Below, in pieces: positions 25,571 through 55,431 of a stretch of 64,000 nucleotides of DNA. A model generated the notes under the pieces. It searched no databases and was not told the origin of the DNA. It saw nothing but the letters and a program-made list of their open reading frames with translations. Source of the stretch: an uncultured Actinomycetes bacterium (GTDB lineage: Bacteria; Actinomycetota; UBA4738; HRBIN12); NCBI GenBank assembly GCA_963722795.1, contig CAVROD010000004.1, forward strand, positions 267,768-331,767, written 5' to 3'. Position numbers and translations under genes: made by a program. How positions within the stretch are numbered: the first letter of the stretch is position 1; each line of letters opens with the position of its first letter.

Positions 25571-25771
25571 CGACCCTTCAGACCAGCCGGGTCCGCAGCT
25601 CGATGGGTTCGATGCCGTTCACATCCCCATCTTCCCATAGCGATCGCGACCCGCCCGCGCCGGAGTGGTCTCGAACGCAGCTTAGGTCTGACGGCAGGGG
25701 TGCCGATAGGAGTCCGGAGAGGGAGCGGGGCCTGAACGGGCCACTGCGGATAGCGAGGGGGTTGTTGATAT

Positions 25772-27385
25772 ATGAGGGCACCCATCAGGCAACTGATGAC
25801 GTGGGGACTGGCGCTGGTCTTGATCAGCAGCGGGCTGGCCTGGGGCGCGACCGGCGATCCGGTCGGAACGGCCCTGTACCGGGTGAACGCGGGTGGACCC
25901 GCGCTCGCCGGCGGCGCATGGGCTGCCGACGACTCGCCTGAGGTGTCCGCGCTCACGAACGAGGAGCGCACGAGGATCGCATCCACCGATCATGCGATCG
26001 ACATGTCGCACCCGTCGGTGCCGGCCGGCACCCCTGCGGCGCTCTTCTCGACGCAGCGCTGGGATCCCCGCGAGCAACCGAGGATGGCCTGGCGGTTCCG
26101 GGTTGAGCCCGGCCAGTACGAGGTGCGGCTCTATTTCGCCGAGATCTCGCCCGACGCCCAAGGTGTCGGGTTGCGGTCGTTCCATGTGGCGATCGAAGGA
26201 TCGGTGCTGCTTCGCGACTACGACGTCTTCCGCGTCGCCGGCGGCGGCTACCGAGGTGTGATGGAGTCGTTCGCGGTCGACTCTGATGAACGACTCCGGA
26301 TCGCGTTCCGTCACCAGCGAGGTATGCCCGTGGTGAACGGCATCGAGGTGCTGCCGTTCGGCTCGACGCCCGATCCGACCGTGGACCCCGATCCGACCGT
26401 GGACCCCGATCCGACCGTGGACCCCGATCCTGAGCCCGATCCGGACGGCACGCCTATCGGAACCGCGTGCGGGGGCGTCAACGTGGCTTCGAGCACGAAT
26501 CTGCAGGCGGCGGTCGATGCGAACCCGACCGGCACGACGTTCTGCCTCCAGGGGACCTACCGGCTCTCCAAGCCTGTCAAGCCGAAGGCGGGGCAGTCGT
26601 TCGTGGGGCCGGCCGTGCTCCTCGGAGCCGGCGCAGCCTCGGCGTTCGACCTCAACAACGGCACGAGTGGCGTCGCCGGTGTCTCGTTCGTCCATCTCGA
26701 CGTCTCCGGCTTCACCGAACGAGGCATCGACTGCTGGGTCGGGACCCGCGTCATCGGCGGGCGATACCATCACAACGACCGGAACGGCATCGGCTGTGGT
26801 CTGGACTACGAGCGCGGCCAGATCCTGATCGTCGGGGTCGAGATCGACCACAACGGTTCGGAGGACGATCTCGGCCAGGGCAGCGGCGGCCTGAAGATCG
26901 CCCGTCTCGGTCCCGACGGCCTGACCGTTCGATACTCGAACATCCATGACAACCTCGGCAGCGGTGTCTGGTGCGACGTGCAGTGCATCGGTACCTTCCT
27001 GGTCGAGGACAACCTGATCGCGCGGAACTCGCGCAAGGGCGTGCACTACGAGAAGTCGGGTGCAACCGACGAGTACATCGAGGGCAGGGTCGTCGAAGGC
27101 CAGGCGGTGATCCGTCGCAACGTCGTCACCGGCAACGGGTGGGAAGGTCGCGATCACGCAGCCGACGGCGGCATCGGCGGTGTGAGCTCGGTGAACATGC
27201 TGATCGAGGGCAACATCACGTCGGGCAACCCCCGCGGCGGGATCTTCCTTCGCACCGACGGGCGTCTGTCGGGCGACAAGCACGGCTGGCCGATGGAGGC
27301 GATCGTGCGCAACAACCAGACCCTCGACGGCATCCGCGGGTGCGTGGAGGAGCCGGGGGTCACCTGCATCGGCAACCTCCTCTGA
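25772..27385 (+). CDS. secreted malectin-domain / right-handed beta-helix protein
   Basis: Signal MTWGLALVLISSGLAWG. Malectin-like YRVNAGG...QRWDP...YEVRLYFAEI...VNGIEVL. (PTVDPD)n linker. Repetitive beta-helix turns (NGIGCG, IHDNLGSGVWCD, IARNSRKGVHYE, VTGNGWEG, EGNITSGN). Confidence 0.8.
   Translation: MRAPIRQLMTWGLALVLISSGLAWGATGDPVGTALYRVNAGGPALAGGAWAADDSPEVSALTNEERTRIASTDHAIDMSHPSVPAGTPAALFSTQRWDPREQPRMAWRFRVEPGQYEVRLYFAEISPDAQGVGLRSFHVAIEGSVLLRDYDVFRVAGGGYRGVMESFAVDSDERLRIAFRHQRGMPVVNGIEVLPFGSTPDPTVDPDPTVDPDPTVDPDPEPDPDGTPIGTACGGVNVASSTNLQAAVDANPTGTTFCLQGTYRLSKPVKPKAGQSFVGPAVLLGAGAASAFDLNNGTSGVAGVSFVHLDVSGFTERGIDCWVGTRVIGGRYHHNDRNGIGCGLDYERGQILIVGVEIDHNGSEDDLGQGSGGLKIARLGPDGLTVRYSNIHDNLGSGVWCDVQCIGTFLVEDNLIARNSRKGVHYEKSGATDEYIEGRVVEGQAVIRRNVVTGNGWEGRDHAADGGIGGVSSVNMLIEGNITSGNPRGGIFLRTDGRLSGDKHGWPMEAIVRNNQTLDGIRGCVEEPGVTCIGNLL
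26369..26446 (+). repeat. 18-bp tandem repeat (3 perfect units plus degenerate tail) encoding the PTVDPD linker
   Basis: cccgatccgaccgtggac x3 at 26369-26422, followed by cccgatcctgagcccgatccggac. Confidence 0.8.
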
Positions 27386-34517: not shown

Positions 34518-35887
34518 CTGCCGATCAGTGCCCGCGCCGTGGGCGATGTCGGACGGGGCTGGAGCTCGACCCGTGTCTGCCTTCCGCGCTGCAACGCCGG
34601 CGCAGCGGCCATACCGGTGATCACCCACACGGGGATGGCGGCGTACGGGGTCTCGAAGTAGTTCGAGAACGTCGCGATCGTGACCGACGAGGCGAGGAAC
34701 GCGAGTCCGAACGCCTGTCCGGTGAGGCGGAAGGTTCGCCACAACAGGGACCCCAGCGCGAGCAGCAGGAACACGAAGCTCAGCACGCCGAGCCAGCCTC
34801 CGTACCCGAGGGCGTACATGAACCAATTGTGCGGTGTTCGAAGGTCGTCCTCGCTGGATCGCAGATCGGCGGTGCTCGTGAGTTCGAAGCCGTAGCCCGG
34901 ACCGAAGGCGGTCAGCGTCGGCTCGGAGTGGATCGAATCCCAGATGCCGGCCCACCATGTCTTCCGCCACTCGGTCGTGCCGGAGAAGTTCCGCGCGTCT
35001 TCGGAGTAGCGGGCGGCAGCCTGCTCGTCGAAGGGGGCGATCACCGCAGCAGCGATGTTGCGGGCCGAGTACTCGCTCGCGCCCCGAGCGAACTCGATGC
35101 GCAGGTCGAGGATCCATGCGGCCGCGAGCAAGGAAACAGCCACCGCGATCACCGCCAACGTCTGGCCGATCCGTTTGGACAGCACGGCCCAGATCGCGAG
35201 GCCGACCACGAAGCCGGCGTAGGACGCCCTGCTCTGGATGCCGAGCAAGATCACGAGGTTGAGGATGAACGGTACCGCCATCTTGTACCCCTTCGGCCGG
35301 AAGGCCATGAGGGCGAGCAGCAGGGTCGACTGGCCCAGCGGCGAGCGGAAGAGCAGGACGTTGGTGCCGGGCAGCGTCAGCAGCGTCTGGTTCAGGACCG
35401 CGATGTACAGGATGCCGTAGATGCCGTTCACCCATGCGAGACCCAGCATGAAACGCTCGAGCAGGCGCGGGTCCTGCTCCGCGAGCCAGATCCCGAGCAG
35501 GATGTACAGCGGGTAGATGTTGAACACCAGCTCCTGCACCAGGAGACGCCGCGGATAGCCTGCCGCGTCTCCTCGGATCGCCAAGACGAAGCCGTAGGCG
35601 ACCAGGATCAGCATGCTCCACGCCAGGGCACCGAGCGGGCTCGGCTCGGTCAGCGCCACCATCAGGCGATGGCCCGACACCTGCGGCCGGAACACGAAGA
35701 AGGCCGCGAGCATCATCTCGCCCATGAACAGCGGCACGCCGGGTACACCGAGGTAGGCGAACGGGCGTTGGAACACCATGTATCCGCCGACGACCACCAT
35801 CGTCGCGATCGCCCACCTCCGGACGCCGGCGTCGGTGGCGGCCTGCGCGACCCCTCGCGCATGGCTCGCGGCGTCCGCCCTCATCAT
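34514..35887 (-). CDS. O-antigen ligase/polymerase (Wzy_C) family membrane protein
   Basis: ATGA overlap with the GT2 stop at 35884-35887. Polytopic. LVILLGIQSRASYAGFVVGLAIWAVL followed by a long periplasmic loop ending HNWFMYALGYGGWLG, typical of the family. Confidence 0.75.
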   Translation of the reverse strand: MMRADAASHARGVAQAATDAGVRRWAIATMVVVGGYMVFQRPFAYLGVPGVPLFMGEMMLAAFFVFRPQVSGHRLMVALTEPSPLGALAWSMLILVAYGFVLAIRGDAAGYPRRLLVQELVFNIYPLYILLGIWLAEQDPRLLERFMLGLAWVNGIYGILYIAVLNQTLLTLPGTNVLLFRSPLGQSTLLLALMAFRPKGYKMAVPFILNLVILLGIQSRASYAGFVVGLAIWAVLSKRIGQTLAVIAVAVSLLAAAWILDLRIEFARGASEYSARNIAAAVIAPFDEQAAARYSEDARNFSGTTEWRKTWWAGIWDSIHSEPTLTAFGPGYGFELTSTADLRSSEDDLRTPHNWFMYALGYGGWLGVLSFVFLLLALGSLLWRTFRLTGQAFGLAFLASSVTIATFSNYFETPYAAIPVWVITGMAAAPALQRGRQTRVELQPRPTSPTARALIGR

Positions 35888-37089
35888 GGCGTCGCCTCCG
35901 CGCTCCCGCCGCCGGTCGAACGGATGCCAGGCCGCCAGCGCACCACTCGGCGAACCAGATCCTTGGCCGCCGACGCGGACAGGCTCGCCGAGAGCCAGGG
36001 CACGCGCATCTGGCGCGGCAGCGCGATGGCCACGAGGTACATCACACGTGCCCACCGCCGCTGGAGGGCGCCGTAGAGGTCGTCGTCCGCGAAGGCCGAT
36101 GACAGGGGGCGGTAGCGACGCCACAGTGAGCGCCGGCCGATGCCTGCGTCGAACAGAGCGGCCTGGAACACCAGCTCACGGTACTTCAGATTCCGCTCGA
36201 GATTGAGTGCGACGTCGTCATGGCCGAGCGCCTGGAGCCGGGCATTCACCTCGTCGACGGACAGGCGCAGGTTGCCGATCAGCCGGTCGGTACGCTCGGG
36301 ATCGAGCTGGGCCCGAGCGTAGACGTTCGCGCCGTGGCGCCGGTAGGTGCCGAGCACCTCGTCGACCGAAGCGATCGGCGTGAGCAGGGGTACGAGCATC
36401 AGGAAGAACGTGTCGGCCGAGCTGCTGAAGCCTTCCTCGGGCATCGGGAAGACGAGGTCGGCGACCTGACGGCGCATCGCGATGCCGCTCGTGGGGACCC
36501 ATCGCCATCTGCCTCCGCGGCGCAGGACCCGGGGGGCGAGCCATCCGTCCTCGAATCGGGTGAGCGCCGGGATGCGCTGGATGGGCTCGCCCTCGGCATC
36601 GGTGACCATGAGCGGATGCACGACCGCGCCGACCTGGCCGCTGCGCAGCTCGTGGACGACGGCGTCGAGTTTGCCTGACTCGAACGTGTCGTCGGCGTCG
36701 AGGAACGCGATGATCTCGCCGCGTGCCCGCCCGAAGGCCGTGTTGAACCCGGCGCCCTGACCACGGTTCACCTCGTGACGCTCGAGGCAGAACCGCGGGT
36801 CGCGCTCGACGAACGAGGTCGCGATGTCGACCGAGTCGTCGCTCGACCCGTCGTCACAGACGATGACCTCGAGGTTGACGTACGTCTGCGCCCGGATGCT
36901 GTCGAGCGCCGCCGTGAGGAACCGGCCATAGTCCTTGTTCGGGACCAGCACCGAGACGAGCGGTTCGGGCGATGACGGCTCGAGCCGCACCGGTTGCAGC
37001 ACTGCATCGCTCACCGCCCGAGGGTACGAGGCGGGTGCGCTGCTTTCGCCCTGGGGTCGATCGTCGCCCCGGCCGACCTCGATGTCCAT
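35884..37089 (-). CDS. family 2 glycosyltransferase
   Basis: VSVLVPNKDYGRFL...VIVCDDGSSDDS...IAFLDADD. It starts 6 nt after the upstream stop. Confidence 0.85.
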   Translation of the reverse strand: MDIEVGRGDDRPQGESSAPASYPRAVSDAVLQPVRLEPSSPEPLVSVLVPNKDYGRFLTAALDSIRAQTYVNLEVIVCDDGSSDDSVDIATSFVERDPRFCLERHEVNRGQGAGFNTAFGRARGEIIAFLDADDTFESGKLDAVVHELRSGQVGAVVHPLMVTDAEGEPIQRIPALTRFEDGWLAPRVLRRGGRWRWVPTSGIAMRRQVADLVFPMPEEGFSSSADTFFLMLVPLLTPIASVDEVLGTYRRHGANVYARAQLDPERTDRLIGNLRLSVDEVNARLQALGHDDVALNLERNLKYRELVFQAALFDAGIGRRSLWRRYRPLSSAFADDDLYGALQRRWARVMYLVAIALPRQMRVPWLSASLSASAAKDLVRRVVRWRPGIRSTGGGSAEATP

Positions 37090-37095
37090 CGCTGC

Positions 37096-39586
37096 CTACG
37101 GGATGGGCTCGACGTGCATGAAGTCCCACGAGGCCGGGAACTCGGGAGCCTTCCCGGCGGACGTGGAGATCATGCCGACCGCGAGGCCGCGGGTGGCAGC
37201 GTCGACCCAGGAGGCGAGCGTGCCGGCCTGGAGCGTGATCGGTCCACCCAACTTGATCTCGGGTCCGAACGTGGAGCCCTGGAACGCCTGGGCGAACCCC
37301 TGCACCGTGCCGGCGCCGGGCTTCACGATGAGCCAGAGGTCGATGAAGTCGGGGCCGGGCATGACCATGTCCTTGTTCCGCTTCACGATGACCGCACCGT
37401 TGTCTTCATAGAGCAGGTTGACCTTGTCCGGCGTGCTGTTCGTCCCCTTCAGCACGACCTTCAGGTAGTCGTCTTGGGTGCCGTCGCCGATGAACAGCCC
37501 CATCGACTGGCTGGCTGCGGGCGTGATGCCCGAGAAGGGGTTCACGATGCGGGTCGACACCTTGAAGTCGGTGCTCGGTGCGTTGACCCCGAATTGGAAC
37601 CCGTATTCCTGCTTGTTCTTGGCCTTGAAGGCGTCGCCCGCCGGCACGTGCTCGATCGTGAACACGCCGGCTGCGCCACCGACCACCATGTTGTTCTCGT
37701 TGAACTGGTTCAGGTAGTCGGTCGTGCCGTTCGTCATCAGCCCCGTGAAGCCGGTGTTCGCGATGCCGCCCGGTGGCGGCTCGCCGTTCTCCCACGAGAT
37801 CACGAAGGGCAGGCCCTGCGAGAGCCCGTTGGTCGGGATCGATCGCGAACGCGTCGTTCTTGTCGGTGACGCCGTCGTTGTCGTCGTCGGGGTCGTTCAG
37901 ATCGGAGATGAAGTCGCCGTCGTTGTCGGCGGGCGTCGACGCCGCCGAGCAGGGGTCGTGCCGTTGTCGATCTCGTCGGCGTTGTCGTAGCCGTCGCCGT
38001 CCTCGTCGAGGGCCGGGTTGTCGGCGCCCGTGCACGGCGGCCTCCGCCGCCGTCGAAGTCGTTCGGCTCCATGACGATGATCTTGCCCGGTCGTCGAGGT
38101 CGGCGATCCAGATCGTGCCCGGGAAGGTCCGCCGGTCGCCCGATCGTCGTGACGTCGAGCGGGCGCGCGGGTCGACTGGAAGGTCGCGAACGTGTCGTCG
38201 ACGCGAGCGTGACCGCGGTGCCGGCGGAGTTCAGGGTGACCCGCGCGAGCAGCGCGACCCTGGTATCCGGCGAGCAGAAGATCGCCCTGCATCGCGCCGT
38301 CGAAGTTGCCGGCCGTGTACTCGGCGATGCCGTTGGACGAGTCGGGGAGCGTCGCGAGCGATGGCGATCTCCGGCTGGTCCGACTCCGGATAGTCGCACT
38401 CGACCGGGTTGGCTGCGACGATCGGCGACTCTCCGTGGAACGTGTTCGCCGCGTTGCCGCGAGTCGGGTTGGGATGCCCGCCGTAGTAGCCCTGGCCGTC
38501 ACCAGATGCAGCGCAGTCCGGCGTGCCGTCCAGGCCGTCGACGTTCAGCTGGTTCGTGCAGTTCGGGGTGCCCTCGCCGATCGGGACGTCACCCCACGAT
38601 CCGTTCGGGCCGTTGTCGGGCACGTACATCTTCCCGGCGTGGTTGCCGACGGTCGCGATCACCAGGTCGTAGGGGTTGCGGAAGCCCGACGCATGGACCT
38701 GCACCGGGCTTCCGGCGGTGATCTTCGCCTGGTTCGCGCCGTCGTTGCCGCCGAACGGGTCGTTGACGTCCTGGCCTCCCGAGTTGGCCCGGCCCGGGTC
38801 GTCGAGCGTCGGCAGGTCGTACGGCGGGTTCGTGATCGCCTCGAGGTCGATGCTCAGGATCGCCGCCGAGTACGCGAACTCAGGGAGGCCGGCGAACTTG
38901 AACGACGGGCCTCCCTTGTTCGTGTTCCCGCCATAGGCCCAGTAGAGGGTGTTCCCGTTCGGGCTCAGCGCGATGCCGTTGGGGCCGTGGTTCTCCTCGG
39001 AGCGCGGGAGCCCCCGCACGAGCACCGTGTGCGTCCACGAGCTGTCCGTTCCACGTCAGGCGCGAGAGCGTGCCGGAGTTCGTGTCGAGGTCGAGGTCGC
39101 TCCCTTCGGTGCCCGCCCCGATGCGTGGGTCCGAGGAGGTCGCGTAGATCACGGGGTTGTTCGCTGTGCCGGTGACGACGATGCCGAGGAGGAGCCGCGT
39201 CTGCGAAAGTCGATGCCGTCGACTACGGAAGTGTTGACCGCACCGTCGTCGTCGTGGTTCGGGATGGTCGTCACGCCATCGATCGTCTCGGTGTTCGTCA
39301 CGTCGTAGTTGTTGACCCCGTTGCGCACCACCGTGAACACACGGATCGTGCCGTCGAAGTACCCGACGTACAGTCGTCCGTCGGGCCCCCACTGGAGTGT
39401 GGTGGGCGCGAACCCCGAGGTGCCCCCGAGGAAGCTCGCGGCCGTGAACCCGATCGGCGCGGCATGGGCGACCGTGACCGGCAACAGCGACGCCAGCATC
39501 GCCACGACGGCGAAGGCTCCAACCGTGAATCGCGAACGTGTCCGTGAGTGCTGCATGACGCTCCTCGGGGGTCGGTGTTCCGTCAT
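37096..39586 (-). pseudogene. secreted modular protein: GSDH/SGL-like beta-propeller, TSP3 Asp-rich repeats, shared C-terminal module (many frame breaks)
   Basis: Signal FTVGAFAVVAMLASLLPVTVAHA. WGPDGRLYVGYFDG, RGLPRSEENHGPNGIALSPNGNTLYWAYGGNTN, HASGFRNPYDL. DEDGDGYDNADEIDNGT and DNDGDFISDLNDPDDDNDGVTD. Intact C-terminal 235 aa (37096..37803). Confidence 0.6.
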
Positions 39587-40693
39587 CCGCATCCTGTGCC
39601 TGCGCTGAGGCGGAACACGTCGTGGTAGGGCGATGCGCCGCCTCCTCCCTGCTTGATCGAGCCGGTGGCGATGTAGAAGGCGCCCCCGCACTCGGCGACC
39701 TGGAAGCCGTGCCGGGGCTTGGCCATCGAGGTCAACGAGCGCCACGAATCGGTCGACGTGTCGTAGGCCTGCACGGCGGCCTGGACCCCCCCGCCCTCAC
39801 CGCCGAAGACGATGACCTCACTCCCGGCCACCCCGATGCCGAAGCCGCCGCGCTTCGTCGGGATCGGGGCGTACCCCGTCTCCCACCTGCCCGTCGAGAA
39901 GTCGAACGCGTCGGTCGGCATGACCGTGGAGTTGATCGGTCCCTGGCGCCCGCCGATCGCCCAGAACTTCCCACCCGCGGTCGCGCCGTGGAAGTGCTCC
40001 CGGGCCCGGGGCATGTTGGGCAGGGCGGTCCAGTCGTCCGTCGCGGGGTCGTAGACGTCGAACCACGAGACCGCGGTGCCGCCGTGCAATCCGCCGGCGT
40101 AGTAGATCTTGCCGTTGCGCACGGCAACCGCGCCGGCGCCGCGCCCGCGGTTGCCCATCGACGCTCCCTGCGTCCATCGGTTCGTGGACGGGGTTGTAGA
40201 TGTAGACGGTGTTGACGTCGCCGTCGGGCCACGAGGTCAGGCCGCCGATCATGTAGATCTTGCCGTCGACCGCGACGGCCTGCACGTGGTGACGTTGCAC
40301 CGGCATCGGGGCCTTGGAGCTCCACGAGTTGGTGGCAGGGTTGTACGCTTTGTGCGCCGTCGTCCACCCGAGCAGGTGGAGCGTGCCGTTGAGGTTGACG
40401 TAGGAGGCTTCCTGCCGTTTGGCGGGCGCGTCAGCGAGACGCTGCCAGGACCCGGCAGCTGCGCCAGCGTCGCGCACCGGCAGGAACGAGAGCATGAGGC
40501 CGCACGCGAGCAGCAGCGCGACGACGGGGCGCGATCGAACGGTGCGTGCTGCTGCCGTGCCGGCGTGGGTGGGGGTTACCCGATGCACATCCGCCAGGCT
40601 AGCACTCGCACCGGGAGACGGGGAGGGCGACGGCTGAGCGCCGCCGCCCTCTCGCCCACGCAGGGTCCTCGATGTCGAGTCGCTAGCCACCAT
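39583..40693 (-). pseudogene. secreted Kelch-repeat beta-propeller protein (one frame break at the G-run 40187-40190)
   Basis: VVALLLACGLMLSF signal. HHVQAVAVDGKIYMIGG, AVRNGKIYYAGG, GGKFWAIGG, SEVIVFGG, GAFYIATG blades. The frames rejoin if one C is removed from AACCCCG. Confidence 0.65.
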
Positions 40694-42635
40694 TGCCCCC
40701 GACGACCTCGAGCGATCCCCAGGTCGCGGGGAAGGGGTCGCCGGGTCCCCTCGAGGTGGAGATGATGCCCACCGCGAGCGCCTTGGACCCGTCGTACCAC
40801 GATGCCGGGATCGGGATCGGCTTGCTGAGCTTGGTCCGTGGCCCTGCCACGCCGCCGGTGGTGGCGACGAAGCTGCCCTTCACGGTGCCGGCCACCGGGT
40901 TGATCGTGAGGAACAGCTCGACCGAGTCGAGGCCGGGCATCGCGAGCGCGTGCCGGGACCGCTTGATCAGCGAGTCCTTGATCTCCTTGGTCAGGTTGAC
41001 CCGGCCACCCGCGTCGCCCTGGGCGACGAGCTTCACGTAGCCGGACTGCGACCCGGAGCCGACGAACAGCCCCATCGATTGGCCGGCTTCGGCGGAGCCA
41101 CCGAACGGGTCCTCGAGCGTGGTCGAGGCCGTGAACTTCCCGGCGGTCGGCATCACGCCGAGCTGGAAGCCGAACCGCTGGTTGTTGAGGAGCCTGTACG
41201 CGTCGCCGGACGGCACCCCGTCGATCGTGAGGCTGCTCCCGAGCGTGATCTTGCCGCGTTGAACTGCTGCTGGTAGTTCGTCGTGCCGTTCTTCATGAGT
41301 CCGGTGAATCCGGTGCCGGCGATGCCGCCGGCAGGACCGCTCCAGCTCATCGACACCGGCACATCTGTGCTCGTGCCGTTGTCGGGATCGATCGCGAAGG
41401 CGTCGGTCTGGTCGGGCTTGCCGTCATCGTCATCGTCGGCGTCGTTCAGATCGGAGTTACCGTCGCCGTCGTTGTCGGGAGGCGTGGACGCCGTCGTCGC
41501 AGGGGTCGGTGCCGTTGTCGATCTCGTCGGCGTTGTCGTACCCGTCACTCGTCCTCGTCGAGCGCCCCGTTGTCCGCTCCGGTGCACACGGGCGGAGGAG
41601 TGGTCGTCGTGGTCGTCGTCGTCGTGGCTCGTGCCACAGCCGGCACCGTCGCTCAGGCGGAAGACGTCGTGGTAGGTCGTGGCGCCACCGCCGCCCTGCT
41701 TCGTGCCGCCGGTCGCGATGTAGAACGCGCCGCCACACTCGGCGACCTGGATGCCATGGCGTGGCACCGGCATCGAGGTGAGCGAACGCCAGTCGTCGTC
41801 GGAGACGTCGTAGGCCTCGACCTCCGCGTGAGCCGCGCCGCCGCCCTCACCGCCGAAGACGAGGATCTCGTCGCCGGAGACGCCGACACCGTAGCCGGCC
41901 CGCTGCGTGGGGATCTGGGCGAACCCGGTCTCCCACGTGCCGGTCGAGAAGTTGAACGCGTCGGTCTGACCGACCGTGGTGTTGATCGCGCCTTGCCGCC
42001 CGCCGATCGCCCAGAGCTTCCCGCCGACGATCGCAGCGTGGAAGTGCTCGCGCGCGCGAGGCATGTCGGGGAGCGAGCGTCCACGAGTCCGTCGCAGGGT
42101 CGTAGACGTCGAACACGGCCACTGCGGTGCCACCGTGCAGCCCGCCGGCGCACGTAGATCTTCCCATCGCGCACGGCGAGCCGGATGCGCCGCGGCCGCG
42201 GCCCGCGGGGAACGGGCTGCCCTGCGTCCAGGCGTCGTCCGCCGGGTCGTAGATGTAGACCGTGTCGACGTCACCGTCGGGCCAGGCCGCAGCCCGCCGA
42301 TCATGTAGATCTTGCCCCCGACGGCCACTGCCTGCACGTGGTCGAGCTTGATCGGCATGGCGGCGCTGCACGACCCACGAGTCGGTCTTCGGGTTGTACA
42401 CGTGATGGTCTTCGCCATCCCATCAGGTAGAGCTTGTTGCCGGCGTTGACATACGACGCTTCTTGGCGCGCGAACGTTCGCGTCGGCCAGATGCTCCCAG
42501 GAGCCATCGGAGGCGGAGTGCCGCGGAATGCGGTCGGCAGCAGCGTTGCCATACAGCGGTCGATGGCGCGAGATCGTCAACCGTCAGTCGCGTCCGGCTT
42601 CGTCATGAGACGGAACGTTCGGGATCGCTTGCCAT
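40683..42635 (-). pseudogene. Kelch-repeat propeller, TSP3 repeats, shared C-terminal module (several frame breaks; start uncertain)
   Basis: Blades GGKIYMIGG, GGKLWAIGG, DEILVFGG, GAFYIATGG. DNDGDGNSDLNDADDDDDGKPD. Intact C-terminal part 40683..41216 is paralogous to 37096..37803. Confidence 0.6.
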
Positions 42636-42740
42636 CGTGCTCCTCGGGGGATGGGGATGCGTCGTCGGGGGGAACCAAGTTACCACCAGTGATGTAGCAC
42701 TGCTATCGGACCATGGGCGGCCGCTCGTAGGCCCATCGGC

Positions 42741-45166
42741 CTATGTGGTGCCCCTGAACACGTGGACGAAGTCCCAGGTCGCCGGGAACGGAGTCGCCGG
42801 GGCCCCTCGAGGTCGAGATGATGCCGACCGCCAGCGCCTTCGACCGGTCGTACCACGTCGCGGGGATCTTGATCGGCATCCGAGGCGCGGTCCGCGGCCC
42901 GGCGTCGCCGTCGGTCGTCGCGATGAAGCTCGCCCTTCACCGTGCCCTTGCAGGTCGTTGATCGTGAGGAAGAGGTCGACGAAGTCCGGGCCCGGCATCG
43001 CGAGCGCGTTGCATCGCTGTGATTCGCACGGTCGTCCTTCAGCTCCTTCAGCAGCTGCACCTGTCCCGCCGGCGTTCGCCCTGGATCACGAGCTTCACGT
43101 AGCGGGACTGGGTGCCGCTGCCGAGCACCAGGCCCATCGACTGGCCGCGGCTCGGGTCGAGGCCGTCGAACGGCCCCACGATGCGCGTCGACGGCCGTGA
43201 ACTTGCCCGACTTCGGCGGGCTCACGCCGAGCTGGAATCCGTACCGCTGGGAGTTGAGGCGCGGTAGCGCGTCGCCGGCGGGCACCGGTGCGATCGTGAG
43301 CACGCCCGCCGCACCGCCCACGACCATGTTCGACTCGTCGAACTGGTTCAGGTAGTCGGCCGATCCGTTCGTCATGAGCCCCGTGAACCCCGTGTTGGCG
43401 ATGCCGCCGGCGGGTGAGGAGTCGTTCTCCCACGAGATCTCGACCGGCAGCCTGGTGCGTCGTGCCATCGCGCGCGATCGATCGCGAAGGGGTCCTTGCG
43501 GTCGGGGGTGCCGTCGTCGTCGTCGTCGGCGTCGTTGAGGTCGGACGTGCCGTCGCCGTCGTTGTCGCGGCGGCACCGACGCGGCGGAGCAGGGGTTCGT
43601 GCCGTTGTCGATCTCGTCGGCGTTGTCGTAGCCGTCGCCGTCCTCGTCGAGATCTGGGTTGTTCGTGCCCGACGCAACCGCCGCCCCGCCACCGCCGCCG
43701 AAGTCGTTCGGCTCCATCACGTAGATCTTGTCGGTCGCGAACGCCGGCGATCCAGATCGTGCCCGGGAAGTCCTCGCCGTGTCCCATCGTCGTGACGTCG
43801 AGCGGCTTCACATCGCCCTCGGGGAAGGTCGCGAAGTTCTCGTCACTGCGCGGTCACGGCGGTGCCGGCCTGCGTTGAGCGAGACCCGCACGATCTTGCT
43901 CGGCCCGTACGCCGCGAGCACGAGGTCTCCCTGCATCGCGCCGTCGAAGTTGCCGGTCGTGTACTCGGCGATGCCGTTGGACGAGTTGGGGAGCAAGGTG
44001 AGCGAGGTCGTCTCGTTCGACTTCGATGCCCGGTAGTCGCACTCGACCGGGTTGTCCGAGACGATCGGCGACTCGCCGTGGAACGTGTTGGCATCGTTGC
44101 CGCGCGTCGGGTTCGGGTGGCCGCCGTAGTACCCGTTCGAGACGAGGTGCAGCGCGTCGTTCGACCCGGTGTCCCCGCCGGGCACGGTGGCGTTCGTGCA
44201 GTTGTTCGTGCCCTCGCCGACCGGGGGCTCGCCCCAGCTCTTGTTCGGGCCGTTGTCGGACAGGTACATCTTGCCGGCGTGGCTGCCGACGGTCGCGATC
44301 ACGAGGTCGTAGGGGTTGCGGAATCCGGGCGCGTGCACCTGCACCGGGCTGCCGGCGGTGATCTTCGCCATGTTCGCGCCGTCGTTCCCGCCGAACGGAT
44401 CGTTCACGTCCCTCCTCCCGAGTTCGCGCGGTCGGGGTCGTCGAGCGTGGGCATGTCGTAGGTGCGTGTTCCCGATCGCAGCGAGGTCGACCTTGAGCAC
44501 CGCCGCCGAGTACGCGTACTCGGGCAGGTTCGCGAACTTGAACGACGGGCCGCCCTGGTTCGTGTGCCCCCCGTACGCCCAATAGAGGGTGTTGCCGTTG
44601 GGGCTCAGCGCGATGCCGTTCGGCCCGTGGTTCTCCTCGGAGCGGGGGAGCCCCCGCACGAGCAGCTTGTGGGTCCATGCCGAGCCGCTCCAGGTCAGGC
44701 GCGAGAGGGTGCCGGAGTTCGTGTCGAGGTTGAGGTCCGCCCCCTCGCTGCCGCCGCCGATGCGGGGATCGGACGACGTCGCGTAGATCACGGGGCTCTG
44801 CGCGGTGCCGGTGAGCGCGAGGCCGAGCAGCAGACGGGTGTTCATCGCGCGTGTTCTCGGTGCCGTTGTCGTTGTGGTTCGGGATGTTCTTGACGGCGCT
44901 GATCGTCTCGGTGCCGTCACCCGGTAGTCGTTCTTCGCGTCGCGCGTCACGGTGTAGGCGCGGATCGAGCCGTCGAAGTAGCCGACGTAGAGACGGCCGT
45001 CGGGACCCCACGCGAGGGTCGTCGGCATGTTCGCCGACGTGCCTGCGAGCGTGCTCGAGGCCGAAGCCGACCGGCTGCCTGGGCCGGGAGCGCCGGGAGG
45101 AGCGACGCGCATGAGCGCGATGCAGGGCAACGGGAGACGAGCGAGCGGGGAAGGCGGGACCTGCAT
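42741..45166 (-). pseudogene. paralogue of 37096..39586 (GSDH-like propeller, TSP3, C-terminal module; many frame breaks)
   Basis: WGPDGRLYVGYFDGSIRAYTV, RGLPRSEENHGPNGIALSPNGNTLYWAYGGHTN, GYYGGHPNPTRGN. DEDGDGYDNADEIDNGTNP. The tail ...TPFPATWDFVHVFRGTT* ends at 42741. Confidence 0.6.
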
Positions 45167-45340
45167 GTACGAACTCCTTGTCGTTCAGGTACCCCCTGAG
45201 CGTCCGTTTCGCGCCGAAGCTAACACAGCTGCTCGTAGGACGCGGAACGGGCCGATCGGCCCACGCAGCGTAGGCCGAAGGTCGAGCATCCCCGGCCCCG
45301 AGGCCTCGCCGGAGCCGTGTTCGCTACGCCCGTGGCGGAG

Positions 45341-46949
45341 TCAGAAGTTGTCGGTGCACTCCACGAGTGGCTCGGAGCACACGCCCACGCCGTCGGCGGC
45401 GTCGTTGTTGCGCACGATCGCGTGCATCTGCCAGCCGTGCTTCTCGCCCGAGAGCCGGCCGTCGGTCCGCAGGAACACGCCCCCGCGGCCGTTGCCGGAG
45501 GTGATGTTGTTCTCGATCAGCATGTTGCGGGAGCTCACGCCCGAGATGCCGCCGTCGGCGGCGTGGTCGCGACCCTCCCAGCCGTTGTCGGTGACGACGT
45601 TGTTCCGGATGATCGCGCGGCCCTCCACGACGCGGCCCGCGATGTACTCGTCGCTCGCCCCCGACTTCTCGTAGTGGACGCCCTTGCGCGAGTTCCGCGA
45701 GATCACGTTGTTCTCGATCAGGAACGTGCCGATGCACTGCACGTCGCACCACACGCCGTTGCCGAGGTTGTCGTGGATGTACGAGTTGCGAACCGTGAGC
45801 CCGTCCTCGCCAAGACGCGCGAACTTCAGGCCGCCCGCGCCCGATCCGAGGTGCTCGTCAGAACCGTTGTGGTCGATCTCCGCGCCGTCGATCAGGATAT
45901 GGCCGCGCGCATAGTCGAGGCCGCATCCGATGCCGTTGCGATCGTTGTGGTGGTACCGGCCGCGGATCACCTGCGTGCCCGTCCAACACTCGATCGCGCG
46001 CAGCTCGAAGCCGGAGATGTCGAGGTCCACGAACGACACGTCTCGATGCGCCCCGTCGCCGTTCGTCAGGTCGAAGCGCCATGTCGGCTCCGCGCGCCCA
46101 CGATCGTGGCGGGGCCCACGAAGGTCTGGCCGGTCTTGGGCTGACCGGCTCGTCGAACCGATACGTGCCGTGCAGGCAGAACGTCGTGCCGGGCCGGCGT
46201 GTGCGTCGACGGCGGCCTGCACGTTCGCGCCGGACGCGACGTGCGACGCCGTGACACTCGGTGATCGGCGGCTGCGTCACCGGGGTCTCTTCCGCCGGTG
46301 GCTCCGTGGGCGCGGGTTCCTCCGGCTCGACGGTCTCCCTCGGCACGATCGATCCGGTCGCGAGCACCTCGATGCCCTTGATGGCCGGATGCTGCTCGTC
46401 GTTGCGGAACGCGACGCGCAGCCGATGATCGGACTCGACCACGAAGGATTCCATCACGCCCCGGTACCCGCCGCCGGCCTCGGTGAAGACGTCATAGCTC
46501 CTGAGCACGGTCGAGCCCTCGATCACGACGGCGAACTGCCTCGCGCCCGTCGAGAAGGCCTCCGGGAAGGTCTCGGCGAAGTACAGGCGCACCTCGTAGG
46601 TGCCGGGCTCGACCGGCAGCCGCCAGCGCATCCGTGGATCCTCGTCGGGGTCCCATCGCTCGCTCTGGAACATCGCGGCAGGCGTGCCGTCGGGGATCGA
46701 CGGGTGGGAGATGTCGATGACCTGCTGGGTGCCGGATGTGCTCGTGTCCTCGGCGTTCACGTACGGCGAGGGCCGCGACTCCGTGTCGCGCGACCACCCG
46801 CCGGCGAGGTCGGGTCCGCCCGCATTGATGCGATAGCGCACCACGGCCCCGACCGTCTCCGCATCTGATGCCTCGAACGAGGCGAGTCCTGCACTGACGA
46901 CCGCGAGCAGCAAGCCCGCGATCGCGAACGACTCGATCCGTGTCCGCAT
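45341..46949 (-). pseudogene. malectin / beta-helix protein, paralogue of 25772..27385 (frame break near 46150-46230)
   Basis: Signal FAIAGLLLAVVSAGLASF. YRINAGG...ERWDP...YEVRLYFAE...IKGIEVL. The beta-helix half lies in the 45341..46222 frame (IHDNLGNGVWCDVQCIGTFLIENN...). Confidence 0.7.
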
Positions 46950-47378
46950 CGTGTCCCCCTCCGTCGTTGCGGTGGTCTCTGACCACCGCTCGTGCGGCCT
47001 GCGGGCCCCCCGGGGCTACCACGTGACCTCCGTGCCGGCCCGCCTACCGAGCCGCCTTCGGTGCGTGTGTGCGATCGATCCGTGCTCCGATATGGGAGAA
47101 CCTCCCGACCGTCTCGTCATCGTGACGGTGGGGAGGCTGTAAGCCAGAAACGCTACAGAATCGATCGCGGGGCGACCACTGAATCTCGCGAAGGCGCCCG
47201 GCGCTTCTCGGCGAAAGGGCGCACCTGCGTTGCAGGTGTTGGGGGAAGTCCACCATGGACGAGCCGGTAGCCAAATCGTCGATGGGATCGAGGAAGCTCG
47301 CAGGAAGGGCAAGCCATGAGGATTCAGCTATGGCGAGTTCGCCGACGTGTATCGCGGCGGAGGGTTCGACGACCGGCT

Positions 47379-47870: not shown

Positions 47871-48463
47871 CGCGCCGTACTATAGGGGTCGTGGGGAGTC
47901 GGCTGCATCTCAGCGCCGAGGCGCGCGCTGTTCGTAAGGTCGTCCGTGATATGCAGCTCGCCAGCCTCGAGCTTCCGGCATCGGCGAAGCGTGAGGTGCA
48001 GCCGTACGGCCATCTCGATCTCCCACAGGCCACCTCTGCTCCCGGTCACGCGGCAGGAGCTGGACCAGGATGAGATGCATGGGGAGGCTGGTCCGGGCTC
48101 GGACGGCGCCTTGGCGTTCTGCGGCTGCTTCCCCCGCCTTGCGTCGCCACCTCGAGCCCGCCGTGCAACGCCCCTCAGACTCAGGACCTCTTGTGACCTC
48201 GTAGCCATCCGCGACTCGCGCTCGGGTGAGCGAGGGTTCCCGTCGCGCCAGTCGCGTCCATGGAAGAGTCGATCGTGCTCGGCGACTTGTCCTCGGCTCC
48301 TCGTGTGACAATCGCCACGGAGGCGTCAGAGTGCTGAGGTCGGATACACTCGCCGCCGTGACACGTGCCGCTCTGGTCGTTCCCACCGACTCCCTGGGGT
48401 GCCGTCTTAGGTGCTGTGGGACGAGGCTGCAACGTCCTTGAATAGGAAACGCGCAGGTCACAC

Positions 48464-48536
48464 GCCGGAGTAGCTCAGTCGGCAGAGCGCCTCCATGGTA
48501 AGGAGGAGGTCAGGGGTTCGATTCCCCTCTCCGGCT
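48464..48536 (+). tRNA. tRNA-Thr (anticodon GGT)
   Basis: Hand-folded cloverleaf: acceptor GCCGGAG/CTCCGGC, D stem GCTC/GAGC, anticodon stem CCTCC/GGAGG with loop AT-GGT-AA, T arm AGGGG-TTCGATT-CCCCT. Confidence 0.9.
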
Positions 48537-49722
48537 CTCGGACACGGTCGGCCTGCTCGCGAGCGACGACCGATGCCGCCAGCCAGGTCGTGATCGGCAT
48601 CGCGGCGACGAGGCCGATCGAGCCGACGAGCGTCCTGACGATCTCGGTCGCGACGATCTCGGTCCCGATGACCTGACCGAGCGGCTGCTGCGAGAGCTGG
48701 AACAGGATCAACAGCGGTAGCGACGCACCGGCGTAGGCCAACGCCAGGGTGTTCACGATGGAACCGACGTGATCGCGCCCCACGCGCATGCCCGCGCGGA
48801 ACAGCCCGACGGAGCCGAGTTCCGGGTCGGCCGAGCGGAGCTCCCAGACGGTGGATGCTTGCGTGACCGCGACGTCGTCGATCGCGCCGAGCGCACCGAT
48901 CATGATCCCGGCGAGCAGCAGACCCCCGAGGTCGATCTCGGCCCCCACCGCCTGGATGACGAACGCCGACTCCGACGCGAGGCCCGACAGCTTGGCGAAC
49001 GGTGTCCAGAGCAAGGACAGCGCCAGGGTGACGGCGACACCGGTCAGGGTGCCGAGCAAGGCGACCGTCGTCAGCCCGGTGAAGCCATGGGCGAGGTACA
49101 ACACGATGAAGCTGATGGCGCCCGCCCCGACCGAGGCGACGAGGACCGGCGAGGCTCCTTCGAGGATGCCCGGGATCACGAAGGTGAGCAGGATCGCGAC
49201 CGAGACCCCGAGACCGACCAGCGCTGCGAGCCCGCGAAGCCTTCCCACGAGGACCACGAGGATGCCGAAGATGAGGGCCAGCCAGATCAGCGAGGGCGTG
49301 CGGACCTGATCGTAGAAGGCGTACGGCGCACCGGGGACCTCGACCGGTGGTCGTTCGAGCAGCACGGTCTCACCCGCCGACAGGTCAGGCGCGGTCGATC
49401 GTTCCGGCAGCTCGATCGTCACGCCCGTGCCCTCGTCCGGACCCGTGACGACGACCAGCTCGATGGCCCGGCACTGCGGCGCATCCGCGGGCGGGGGAGC
49501 GACGTCGCCATCGACCGCCGTCGTCGAGCCACAGGGGACCACCTCGATCGTCGTCACGTCCGCCTCGACGATCGCGCCTCGACGCAGCAGCTCCGCCCCC
49601 TCCGGGGGCTGCACGTCGCTCGGCCAGAGCACCACCATGCCGACGACGATGGCGATCGCGAGGGCGGCCGTGACACCGGTCAGGAGCGGGTGGGCCGATG
49701 GCCGTCGATGCGCCTGCGCCAT
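48475..49722 (-). CDS. YibE/F family membrane protein
   Basis: Starts MAQAHRRPSAHPLLTGVTAALAIAIVVGMVV. GAIDDVAVTQASTVWEL...GRDHVGSIVNTLALAYAGASLPLLILF. The last ~20 codons are antisense to tRNA-Thr. The upstream part of the 646-aa ORF is discarded. Confidence 0.75.
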   Translation of the reverse strand: MAQAHRRPSAHPLLTGVTAALAIAIVVGMVVLWPSDVQPPEGAELLRRGAIVEADVTTIEVVPCGSTTAVDGDVAPPPADAPQCRAIELVVVTGPDEGTGVTIELPERSTAPDLSAGETVLLERPPVEVPGAPYAFYDQVRTPSLIWLALIFGILVVLVGRLRGLAALVGLGVSVAILLTFVIPGILEGASPVLVASVGAGAISFIVLYLAHGFTGLTTVALLGTLTGVAVTLALSLLWTPFAKLSGLASESAFVIQAVGAEIDLGGLLLAGIMIGALGAIDDVAVTQASTVWELRSADPELGSVGLFRAGMRVGRDHVGSIVNTLALAYAGASLPLLILFQLSQQPLGQVIGTEIVATEIVRTLVGSIGLVAAMPITTWLAASVVAREQADRVREPERGIEPLTSSLPWRRSAD

Positions 49723-49809
49723 GGCGCCAAACGTACCGGTACCTCGCCCAGCGGTCGGTAGCCGGCGGCATCTCGGTACCGTGAACCCCCAACGAGACGG
49801 GAGGACGGT

Positions 49810-54245: not shown

Positions 54246-55431
<1,186 letters not shown>

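Follow-up and report, generated by a model that had tools for sequence, protein, structure and literature searches.

Five neighbouring minus-strand genes (37096–46949) head a surface-polysaccharide cluster in an uncultured soil actinobacterium, and raise the question of whether they are genuine genes, how they are related to each other and whether they act on the polymer of that cluster. Analysis of the window (the whole stretch of 64,000 nucleotides) leads us to favour, with moderate confidence, an account in which they form a conserved array of secreted, carbohydrate-directed proteins working on a sulfated polymer, with frame breaks that are consensus errors and with duplications that are old.

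A conserved five-gene block ahead of GT2 and Wzy genes

Pfam matches on the frame pieces together with intact orthologues upheld the five consecutive genes and the architectures given in the preliminary description, and frameshift-aware alignment to intact relatives gave the same order of propeller, TSP3 repeats and C-terminal module. The stop codons lie at 37096, 39583, 40683, 42741 and 45341, and the features are as follows.

25769..27382, plus: paralogue of gene 5 at the opposite end of the glycan cluster, an intact, inverted malectin–beta-helix gene with a 538-codon open frame
35884..37089, minus: GT2 glycosyltransferase (Pfam Glycos_transf_2, 103 bits), starting 6 nt past the gene 1 stop
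37096..39586, minus: gene 1, own signal peptide, sGDH/AA12-like propeller, three TSP3 repeats, ConA-like module; about 800–830 aa
37096..38040, minus: cassette copy 1 (gene 1), TSP3 plus ConA-like module; direct-repeat families D5, D9–D11, D13 and D15
39583..40693, minus: gene 2, signal peptide and six-bladed Kelch propeller alone
40683..42635, minus: gene 3, signal peptide, Kelch propeller, Thr-rich linker, three TSP3 repeats, ConA-like module; about 649 aa
40683..41590, minus: cassette copy 2 (gene 3), TSP3 plus ConA-like module, from repeat search and alignments
42741..45166, minus: gene 4, signal peptide, sGDH/AA12-like six-bladed propeller, three TSP3 repeats, ConA-like module; about 800 aa
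42741..43690, minus: cassette copy 3 (gene 4), TSP3 plus ConA-like module, from repeat search and alignments
45341..46949, minus: gene 5, signal peptide, malectin, Pro/Glu/Thr-rich linker, right-handed beta-helix; about 530 aa

The array is a genuine conserved block. An independent metagenome contig (L039) contains the same five genes, intact and in identical order, at 87% nucleotide identity, and is colinear with positions 47188..38211 of the window (86.5–87.2%). L039 and at least seven other independent JGI contigs show this order with uninterrupted ORFs, which measure 530, 800, 649, 334 and at least 442 aa. Reading of the junction confirmed the claimed 6-nt gap between gene 1 and the GT2 gene (37090–37095, GT2 start at 37089), and no minus-strand terminator-like site was found within the array; the block is probably co-transcribed into the GT2/Wzy surface-polysaccharide operon. 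The GT2 gene heads a downstream block of GT2, Wzy, polytopic membrane protein, GT4 and sulfotransferase genes. GT2 and Wzy (Wzy_C, 39 bits) were supported by Pfam, but the supposed Wzx (33252–34508) had no Pfam match and is described here as a polytopic membrane protein, conserved in an orthologous locus of another genus (G081).

Genes 1, 2 and 5 have recognisable signal peptides, as do all L039 orthologues, in line with the secretion proposed earlier, and from their sequences all five products are predicted to be Sec-type secreted proteins built of carbohydrate-directed modules. Gene 5, whose frame pieces score 58.9 bits for Malectin and 46.3 bits for Beta_helix, shares 88% identity with its intact 530-aa L039 orthologue and 66% with its paralogue in the window, and its product probably serves the locus as a glycanase, lyase or epimerase. 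Gene 4 has a ribosome-binding site, AAGGAG, ahead of its ATG at 45166 and, by frameshift-aware alignment, is 87% identical to the intact 800-aa L039 orthologue and 61% to L016. In gene 3 the signal peptide is scrambled in the window sequence; the gene is 89% identical to an intact 649-aa orthologue (P0121/L039) present on 18 contigs, matches Kelch_1 in both the window and the intact orthologue, and cleanly lacks the dehydrogenase-like propeller. Gene 2, starting at ATG 40693 or, as called in L039, at GTG 40588 (334 aa), matches Kelch_1 at 77 bits, is 92% identical to its 334-aa L039 orthologue, has a KEAP1-type Kelch as its best PDB match by sequence, and shares 70% identity with the Kelch of gene 3. 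Gene 1 starts either at ATG 39586, where it overlaps the stop of gene 2, or at ATG 39556 as in L039, and its last 235 codons (37099–37803) are intact in a single frame.

Predicted folds of the module and the propeller

Among the domains named in the preliminary description, Kelch, Malectin and Beta_helix were matched by HMM search, but GSDH and TSP_3 were not matched in the window. The C-terminal module of about 235 aa is without a Pfam model, and a GH43_C2 match was obtained for 1 of 12 module sequences (3e-4). The earlier guess of a ConA/LamG-like fold was borne out by structure prediction and fold search: the module of cassette copy 1 alone (pLDDT 72, pTM 0.75) gave GH43_C2 domains as best PDB matches (E 7e-8, TM 0.6), followed by legume lectins. 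The module is thus predicted to fold as a ConA-like beta-sandwich, nearest to the C-terminal domain of GH43 xylosidases. GH43 beta-xylosidases share the layout of propeller then sandwich, although their propeller is five-bladed, whereas the array proteins have a six-bladed sGDH-like propeller, a Ca-repeat linker in between and only 11–14% sequence identity.

In thrombospondins and COMP, TSP type-3 repeats are wrapped on an L-lectin-like C-terminal domain. Three DxDxDGxxDxxD Ca-type repeats are present in the array, as previously noted, and TSP3 plus sandwich matched the COMP signature domain 3fby (E 5e-8; sandwich alone 2e-5), with which it shares these Asp-rich repeats, conserved cysteines and a following lectin-like beta-sandwich. 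Pfam TSP_C and TSP_3 gave no match, and TSP3_bac matches were sub-threshold. Note that the array proteins, which are bacterial, secreted and propeller-fused, have just three repeats and a sandwich structurally nearer to GH43_C2 than to TSP_C, and that the likeness shown is one of fold and layout.

Fungal AA12 enzymes have a propeller joined to carbohydrate-binding modules, as in the array proteins. The model of the propeller–TSP3–module core (pLDDT 87, pTM 0.87) matched a PQQ sugar dehydrogenase (3a9g; TM 0.67 on target) and the Trichoderma reesei AA12 enzyme 6h7t, with six blades in both the array and these proteins (GSDH PF07995/AA12). Comparison by hhalign with a canonical GSDH of the same genome aligned invariant His154 with the HNGG His, Arg258-Asn259 with HRN, and GYYGGHP with GNYGWP (GxYGxP), albeit at a probability of only 26%. 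Pfam GSDH had no match in the window propellers or the intact L039 orthologue, a GSDH search across the genome returned none of the array genes, and a PDB sequence search with the dehydrogenase-like propeller gave no match; relatives scored 28.6–29.5 bits against a cut-off of 25, in the C-terminal half only. The array propeller also contains large insertions (~465 vs ~340 aa). We regard the core propeller as a remote relative of the PQQ-dependent soluble sugar dehydrogenases (CAZy AA12), a relationship that is weak at the sequence level.

At least 1,714 homologues of the propeller–TSP3–module family were found; the best 120 of these cover at least 88% of the 795-aa core, all but one at least 94%, and the module forms 1,078 clusters at 50% identity. 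TSP3 repeats immediately precede the module in 51 of 53 representatives, and in 48 of the 53 this cassette comes straight after the propeller, a coupling not seen in the PQQ sugar dehydrogenases. On these sequence comparisons, propeller–TSP3–module appears to be a near-obligate unit of a large uncharacterised family; our literature search found no paper on the family and no characterised member.

The proteins could instead be non-catalytic matrix or adhesin components, that is, thrombospondin-like Ca-dependent lectins that cross-link or anchor sulfated exopolysaccharide with propellers serving as binding platforms only. The COMP-like layout of TSP3 and lectin-like domain fits such a role, as do Kelch and malectin being binding modules, the adhesin-like appearance of giant multi-copy members (up to 6,083 aa and six module stretches) and the failure to find pqqC in this genome or in five carriers at least 90% complete. 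We consider it unlikely, though deserving of serious attention, since the invariant His and Arg-Asn occupy the positions of sGDH catalytic and cofactor residues, and since the near-obligate coupling of the cassette to one propeller points to a functional unit that has an active site.

Genomic context and the probable link to a sulfated polymer

The link to the adjacent polymer genes, proposed from the window alone, was backed by synteny in another genus and by sulfotransferase, sulfatase and EPS genes that turn up repeatedly near family members elsewhere. G081 has one orthologue, which is flanked by genes for a priming transferase, UDP-glucose dehydrogenase and epimerases on one side and by GT2, Wzy, GT4 and sulfotransferase genes on the other. 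Of the 10 contexts examined, 6 have sulfotransferase or sulfatase genes no more than 10 kb away (in two of these six, a sulfatase gene abuts the family member), and two of the 10 have no glycan genes. A role in scavenging environmental sugars or foreign polysaccharides, unrelated to the biosynthetic neighbours and parked in a variable island by tRNA-Thr, would agree with those family members that adjoin sulfatases and ABC sugar-uptake genes or lack glycan context, and with nearest folds that are degradative or auxiliary-activity CAZymes. It is improbable given the 6-nt distance from gene 1 to the GT2 gene, the position of the G081 orthologue in the middle of a biosynthetic cluster, and the recurrence of sulfotransferase, Wzy and GT neighbours on unrelated contigs.

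Frame breaks within the array

The frame breaks are passed over in the preliminary description. None of the five genes can be read through in one frame of the window sequence, and two to many frames are needed for each. The array contains ~55 single-base frame breaks in 9.9 kb. Relative to the L039 orthologues, there are four in gene 5 (clustered at ~46.07–46.25 kb), ~25 in gene 4 (22 of them extra bases), ~13 in gene 3, where what looks like a stop at 42603 lies outside the reading frame, and one in gene 2 near 40189; gene 1 has ~11–13, six in the first 442 codons against L039 and ~7 beyond these, counted against L016. All events are of ~1 nt. The same method applied to the adjacent GT2, Wzy and membrane-protein genes (~6 kb, against G081 orthologues) revealed none.

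This restriction to the array, and the accessory nature of the locus (in searches of same-genus genomes, the module was found in none of 13 and the adjacent GT2 in none of 36), would be expected of pseudogenes, relics of an island being lost, in which dozens of frameshifts are real. Natural bacterial gene decay, however, is biased towards deletions and slippage, whereas one-base insertions in the window outnumber deletions by 38 to 12, and 34 of the 38 differ from both adjacent bases, i.e., are not homopolymer extensions. No true in-frame stop was found across the array genes, 96–98% of family-invariant residues are retained (gene 1, 113/115; gene 4, 110/115; gene 3 cassette, 39/40), and divergence from L039 is mostly at the third codon position (8.3, 6.3 and 22.6% at positions 1, 2 and 3). 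Both copies of the essential tuf gene in this genome are likewise split across frames. Decay is thus quite improbable, and the breaks are most likely long-read consensus errors. That the array is an assembly chimera or collapsed repeat is scarcely credible, even though the consensus is poor exactly there and the content is paralogous, because all five genes recur in this order on the independent contig L039, assemblies from several samples agree on gene order across 9 kb, and the paralogues, only ~75% identical in DNA, are too divergent to collapse.

History of the cassettes

The three TSP3-plus-module cassettes were confirmed, and a 35-nt motif quoted from them occurs exactly three times (37961–37995, 41512–41546 and 43602–43636, in copies 1, 2 and 3) against 0 expected by chance. 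Pairwise comparison showed clear similarity, with protein identities of 54–61%, but the long stretches of near-identical DNA reported earlier were overstated: genes 1 and 4 share 75% identity across 2.3 kb, rising to 80–86% in blocks. Nor did the proposed recency of the duplication hold, as the paralogues are 54–73% identical in amino acids and the gene 1 cassette groups not with those of genes 3 and 4 but as sister to the G081 orthologue in the tree (support 99/97). As for domain shuffling, rearrangement is real: the Kelch and the propeller–TSP3–module core are fused in G081 and split in the window, and other relatives have core-then-Kelch fusions. Free shuffling of the cassette is contradicted by its coupling to the propeller. 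The comparisons point to old duplications with gene fission, fusion and propeller loss, not recent shuffling.

Related clusters and proposed function

In the Streptomyces CslA-GlxA system a GT2 synthase is accompanied by a secreted radical copper oxidase with a Kelch-like propeller, an enzyme thought to act on the nascent glycan. The window similarly pairs a GT2 gene with a secreted propeller protein, here a putative oxidoreductase; however, the match of the array to the GlxA model is negligible (E 0.0018, 16.6 bits vs a cut-off of 800), and the array Kelch is a plain KEAP1-type six-blade, unlike GlxA. The window is of the same type as two sulfated-EPS Wzx/Wzy clusters, Synechocystis xss (synechan; PMC8205485) and Actinoplanes missouriensis wps-1, which includes two sulfotransferases and a GH26 hydrolase in a paper that contains no mention of a propeller (PMC13390465). 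Common to these loci and the window are GTs, Wzy, several sulfotransferases and an in-cluster accessory secreted glycan-active protein, whereas in the window the accessory genes are expanded to five.

We infer that the array serves extracellular binding or oxidation of a sulfated polymer. Outside the cell, the Ca-loaded TSP3 stretch would pack against the lectin-like sandwich in the manner of the thrombospondin signature domain, and the two together would dock the protein on the sulfated exopolysaccharide that the neighbouring genes produce. The gene 3 product would be a derivative of the core with a Kelch propeller in place of the dehydrogenase-like one, and Kelch and malectin modules may add binding valency. 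The propeller, in which the catalytic His and the Arg-Asn cofactor motif of the family are kept, may then oxidise or otherwise process sugar residues or chain ends.

Gene content of the array

The array at 37096–46949 comprises five minus-strand genes, numbered from gene 5 (45341..46949) down to gene 1 (37096..39586), in an assembly (G000) of 3.08 Mb in 4 contigs with 70% GC and 67% marker completeness, where the window is C4:267768-331767. Genes 1 and 4 encode propeller–TSP3–module proteins (the core), gene 3 a Kelch–TSP3–module protein, gene 2 a Kelch protein and gene 5 a malectin–beta-helix protein; the TSP3 repeats and the C-terminal module of genes 1, 3 and 4 form a cassette in three copies. 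Each gene model of the preliminary description is spread over at least two frames, and no long minus-strand ORF matches them in 37096–46949. Pfam searches on stop-to-stop pieces located the following domains.

Domains found by Pfam on stop-to-stop pieces of the array
39586-40236, minus strand: Kelch
39821-40879, minus strand: Kelch
41156-42583, minus strand: Kelch
45344-46276, minus strand: Beta_helix
45861-47015, minus strand: Malectin

Against a cut-off of 20.1, Kelch_1 (PF01344) reached 69–77 bits in the pieces from the window and 143 bits in the intact orthologue, and with KEAP1 as the top PDB match (E 1e-40) the domain is a plain six-bladed KEAP1-like propeller. The gene 5 protein contains Malectin (PF11721; 58.9–60.2 bits, cut-off 23) and the right-handed beta-helix model Beta_helix (PF13229; 43.4–46.3 bits, cut-off 25.9), both above cut-off in one protein.

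The gene boundaries proposed previously stand, with starts, stops, signal peptides and a ribosome-binding site read in the sequence. A separate signal peptide and a separate start are present in gene 1, the start overlapping or following the stop of gene 2 (39583); gene 2 likewise has a separate signal peptide, beyond the stop of gene 3 (40683); AAGGAG lies ahead of the ATG of gene 4 at 45166; and 6 nt separate the gene 1 stop from the GT2 start (37089). A fused Kelch and core gene for genes 2 and 1, of the type in G081 (a genome of another genus with a syntenic cluster), was rejected on the strength of the separate start and signal peptide of gene 1.

Paralogy within the array was borne out by direct repeats between genes 1 and 4 together with three-copy families over the cassettes, and a 35-nt motif quoted for the cassettes occurs exactly 3 times versus 0 by chance. 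The term "near-identical DNA" needs correcting, since the repeat blocks of genes 1 and 4 share only 80–86% identity, with an offset that drifts between 5638 and 5645 nt in direct-repeat analysis. The preliminary description spotted the array correctly and parsed it mostly correctly, and clustered frame errors are to be added to it; the array is real, and it amounts to a fairly ordinary expansion within a family of secreted carbohydrate-directed proteins that is uncharacterised.

Intact arrays on independent contigs

A search with the gene 3 read-through protein revealed an intact 649-aa homologue (P0121; 87% identity) present on 18 metagenome contigs. Eight contigs (L039–L046) share the array with complete ORFs, and window positions 47188..38211 are colinear with L039 at 86.5–87.2% identity. 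These independent contigs with an intact array rule out a chimera or collapsed repeat.

Array genes on L039-type contigs
Malectin–beta-helix: complete ORF, 530 aa
Core: complete ORF, 800 aa
Kelch–TSP3–module: complete ORF, 649 aa
Kelch: complete ORF, 334 aa
Second core: truncated where the contig ends

Beside the array, tRNA-Thr directly adjoins an Lpd-like oxidoreductase gene in L039 (L039:1502-1663), whereas the window has a YibE/F-type gene, absent from L039, between the two (48458-49825).

Origin of the frame breaks

Comparison with intact references revealed 4 breaks in gene 5, about 25 in gene 4, about 13 in gene 3, 1 in gene 2, and 6 in the first half of gene 1 with about 7 more in its remainder, and the identical procedure found 0 in the adjoining GT2, Wzy and membrane-protein genes. 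Nearly all events were single-base, with 38 insertions versus 12 deletions. The inserted base differed from both neighbouring bases in 34 of the 38 cases; slippage, or natural decay with its bias towards deletions, gives a different pattern. Substitutions relative to L039 amounted to 8.3, 6.3 and 22.6% at codon positions 1, 2 and 3, respectively. After frame tracking, 113/115, 110/115 and 39/40 family-invariant residues were kept and 0 genuine in-frame stops were left; apparent stops at 42937 and 42603 were gone with a closer reference or direct DNA alignment. Both EF-Tu copies of the genome are split across frames (window 54246-55428 and G000:C4:393865-395048, the second also with a TGA), so consensus errors reach essential genes; rpoB is intact in the same assembly. 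Six indirect lines make it very probable that the frame breaks are an assembly artefact.

As to the source of such errors, the breaks resemble generic insertion errors of long-read sequencing. Stacked strain alleles are unsupported, because insertions lay beside third codon positions in 25 of 35 cases against a chance expectation of 2/3, with no enrichment, and because the inserted bases, although non-homopolymer, were mostly transversion partners. Short G/C runs fit the Kelch break at 40189 and fail for most breaks. Gene calls fail over the array because the probable consensus errors are clustered; an entire functional gene block is lost to gene calling in this assembly, and automated annotation would give fragments or pseudogenes.

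C-terminal module and TSP3 repeats

The module is intact in gene 1 (37099-37803). Its 3 copies in the genome all lie within the array; among 150 other genomes searched within the order 10 have it, and none of 13 searched within the genus does. Modelling from a 12-sequence alignment predicted a beta-sandwich (pLDDT 72, pTM 0.75), in agreement with an earlier guess that the module is ConA-like: the top PDB fold matches of the model were the ConA-like C-terminal domains of GH43 xylosidases (E 7e-8, TM ~0.6), followed by legume lectins and the COMP signature domain. The fold likeness to GH43_C2 is real, but the propeller upstream is sGDH-like here, not GH43, and GH43_C2 (PF17851) matched 1 of the 12 module sequences (E 3e-4) and not the window copy. 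At sequence level no significant PDB match emerged, whether the query was the profile of the module, that of the core or an intact relative. Having no Pfam model in Pfam and NCBIfam searches of the frame pieces and the module itself, the module may represent a new ConA-like domain family. Its profile retrieved 1,078 clusters at 50% identity, with proteins of up to ~6,000 aa. Four giant proteins (P0238, P0243, P0348 and P0352) have 2,500–6,100 aa and 2–6 module copies, and their composition suggests adhesin-like, multi-core versions of the family.

In the TSP3 stretch, three DxDxDGxxDxxD motifs are readable in every copy, together with two invariant Cys residues; Pfam TSP3_bac scored 16.7–21.9 bits, under the cut-off of 25. 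The model of the stretch is confident and shows no regular secondary structure; in a fold search TSP3 plus the sandwich matched COMP (E 5e-8). Tandem Ca-type TSP3 repeats are thus common to these proteins and the thrombospondin signature domain; however, there is no TSP_C Pfam match here, and the likeness to 3fby is at fold level only and ranks below GH43_C2.

Propeller and relation to sugar dehydrogenases

For the core, a 777-aa model was made from the sequence of G081, the closest intact relative, which is 61–63% identical to genes 1 and 4 (pLDDT 87, pTM 0.87). Foldseek matched the model to the PQQ sugar dehydrogenase 3a9g (E 3e-11, TM 0.67 on target) and to the AA12 structures 6h7t/6i1t (E 1e-11); as modelled, the propeller has a six-bladed sGDH-type fold. 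At sequence level, GSDH (PF07995, cut-off 25) scored 28.6–29.5 bits in three relatives (L024, L021 and L023), in matches confined to the C-terminal half of the profile, with no score on the window pieces or the intact L039 orthologue. A PF07995 search of the whole genome did not recover the array, and Pfam plus NCBIfam on the window frame pieces returned nothing for the propeller. All 51 sequences compared share His154 and Arg258-Asn259; an hhalign alignment to a canonical GSDH from the genome placed them at HNGG and HRN, respectively, and aligned the family GYYGGHP with GNYGWP, at a probability of only 26% (E 7e-4).

The cofactor gene pqqC (TIGR02111) was found neither in this genome nor in five carriers of 90% completeness or more, in searches whose control set was without any positive. 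Three canonical GSDH-family (PF07995) genes lie elsewhere in the genome (G000:C1:13088-13951; G000:C2:200562-202706), which makes PQQ scavenging possible; the organism may rely on it.

Polysaccharide locus and genomic contexts

For the adjoining genes, described previously as a GT2/Wzy/Wzx operon, Pfam confirmed GT2 (103 bits) and Wzy_C (39.1 bits, cut-off 31.7). The presumed Wzx, a candidate flippase at 33252-34508 (minus strand), is unconfirmed, with no Pfam match at E<=1e-3; its product is a 419-aa polytopic membrane protein, 57% identical to its G081 counterpart. The G081 orthologue is flanked on one side by genes for a priming sugar transferase, two epimerases and UDP-glucose dehydrogenase, and on the other by GT2, Wzy, GT4 and sulfotransferases, with a malectin–beta-helix gene at the far end; the Bac_transf priming enzyme was seen in this syntenic locus only. 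The window contains a second, intact malectin–beta-helix paralogue at 25769-27382 (plus strand), which forms an inverted pair (66% aa) with 45341-46949 (minus strand) that brackets the glycan cluster and the array; of these two positions, G081 has the distal one only.

The GT2 next to the array had no homologue at E<=1e-30 in 36 same-genus genomes. The lack of GT2 and module in the same-genus genomes searched, together with the syntenic cluster in G081, indicates that the locus acts as a patchy accessory island beside tRNA-Thr. Contexts of family members elsewhere were varied.

Genomic contexts of family members
Wzy, galactose-3-O-sulfotransferase, GT4: one locus
Abutting sulfatase: one locus
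Abutting sulfatase plus four sulfotransferases, GT2, pyruvyl transferase: one locus
GT87, three PMT_2 genes, deacetylase, phosphodiesterase: two loci
No glycan genes: two loci

Formylglycine-type sulfatase genes abut members on two unrelated contigs (L033:8598-13288 and L035:3097-6941), with a 4-nt overlap at one junction and a 5-nt gap at the other. Such gene adjacency hints at a sulfatase partnership of the family. The closest published contexts are the sulfated-EPS loci of Synechocystis (PMC8205485) and Actinoplanes (PMC13390465).

History of the copies

In the cassette tree, gene 1 and the G081 orthologue form one pair (support 99/97), and genes 3 and 4 form another (100/96). Protein identities were 73% between the two propellers, 54–61% among the cassettes and 70% between the two Kelch domains, and propeller, cassette and Kelch are each ~50–65% identical to G081. 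These values show the duplications to be old, and the earlier claim of recent duplication needs correcting accordingly. Since the groupings differ from domain to domain, the copies may have undergone recombination or gene conversion. Kelch and core form one fused gene in G081 and two genes here, and other relatives have a core-then-Kelch fusion in a single ORF. Gene 3 resembles a gene of the G081 type from which the propeller was excised between two conserved Cys residues.

Wider family

An intact relative used as query retrieved at least 1,714 homologues; among the best 120, identity is 49–85% and coverage of the 795-aa core is 88% or more, with 94% or more in every case except one. Upstream of the module, TSP3 was present in 51 and the propeller in 48 of 53 representatives, so the tripartite core is a conserved unit. 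The propeller-less form of gene 3 is a minority, yet it is conserved in five further proteins (P0121–P0123, P0126–P0127). Domains added among members include Kelch (N- or C-terminal), malectin plus PF11617, Ig-like, PA14 and FN3. The source MAGs are labelled Actinomycetota, Acidimicrobiales, Gaiellaceae and Nitriliruptorales, plus one Candidatus Polarisedimenticol..., and the proteins have generic names ('glucose/arabinose dehydrogenase', 'kelch repeat-containing', 'hypothetical'). The propeller–TSP3–module architecture is described nowhere in the literature found by searching.

Proposed function

To our knowledge, sulfated-exopolysaccharide systems are barely described outside cyanobacteria. 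In the mechanism that we propose, the array proteins would be exported, the Ca-loaded TSP3 and lectin-like unit would dock onto a sulfated polymer, the sGDH-like propeller would act on sugar residues or chain ends, and the beta-helix protein might trim or epimerise the polymer. A purely structural, thrombospondin-like lectin role stays a serious rival, because pqqC was not found in carriers and the sequence link of the propeller to GSDH is weak. It is rather unlikely, although conceivable, that the core is an undescribed class of extracellular polysaccharide-modifying oxidoreductase, a bacterial AA12-like enzyme with thrombospondin-signature-like Ca/lectin docking that is dedicated to sulfated exopolysaccharides; in that case soil Actinomycetota would have a matrix of sulfated glycan whose 'matricellular' proteins parallel those of the animal extracellular matrix.

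If the proposed role holds, the family would be a widespread, unstudied accessory part of bacterial sulfated-exopolysaccharide systems.
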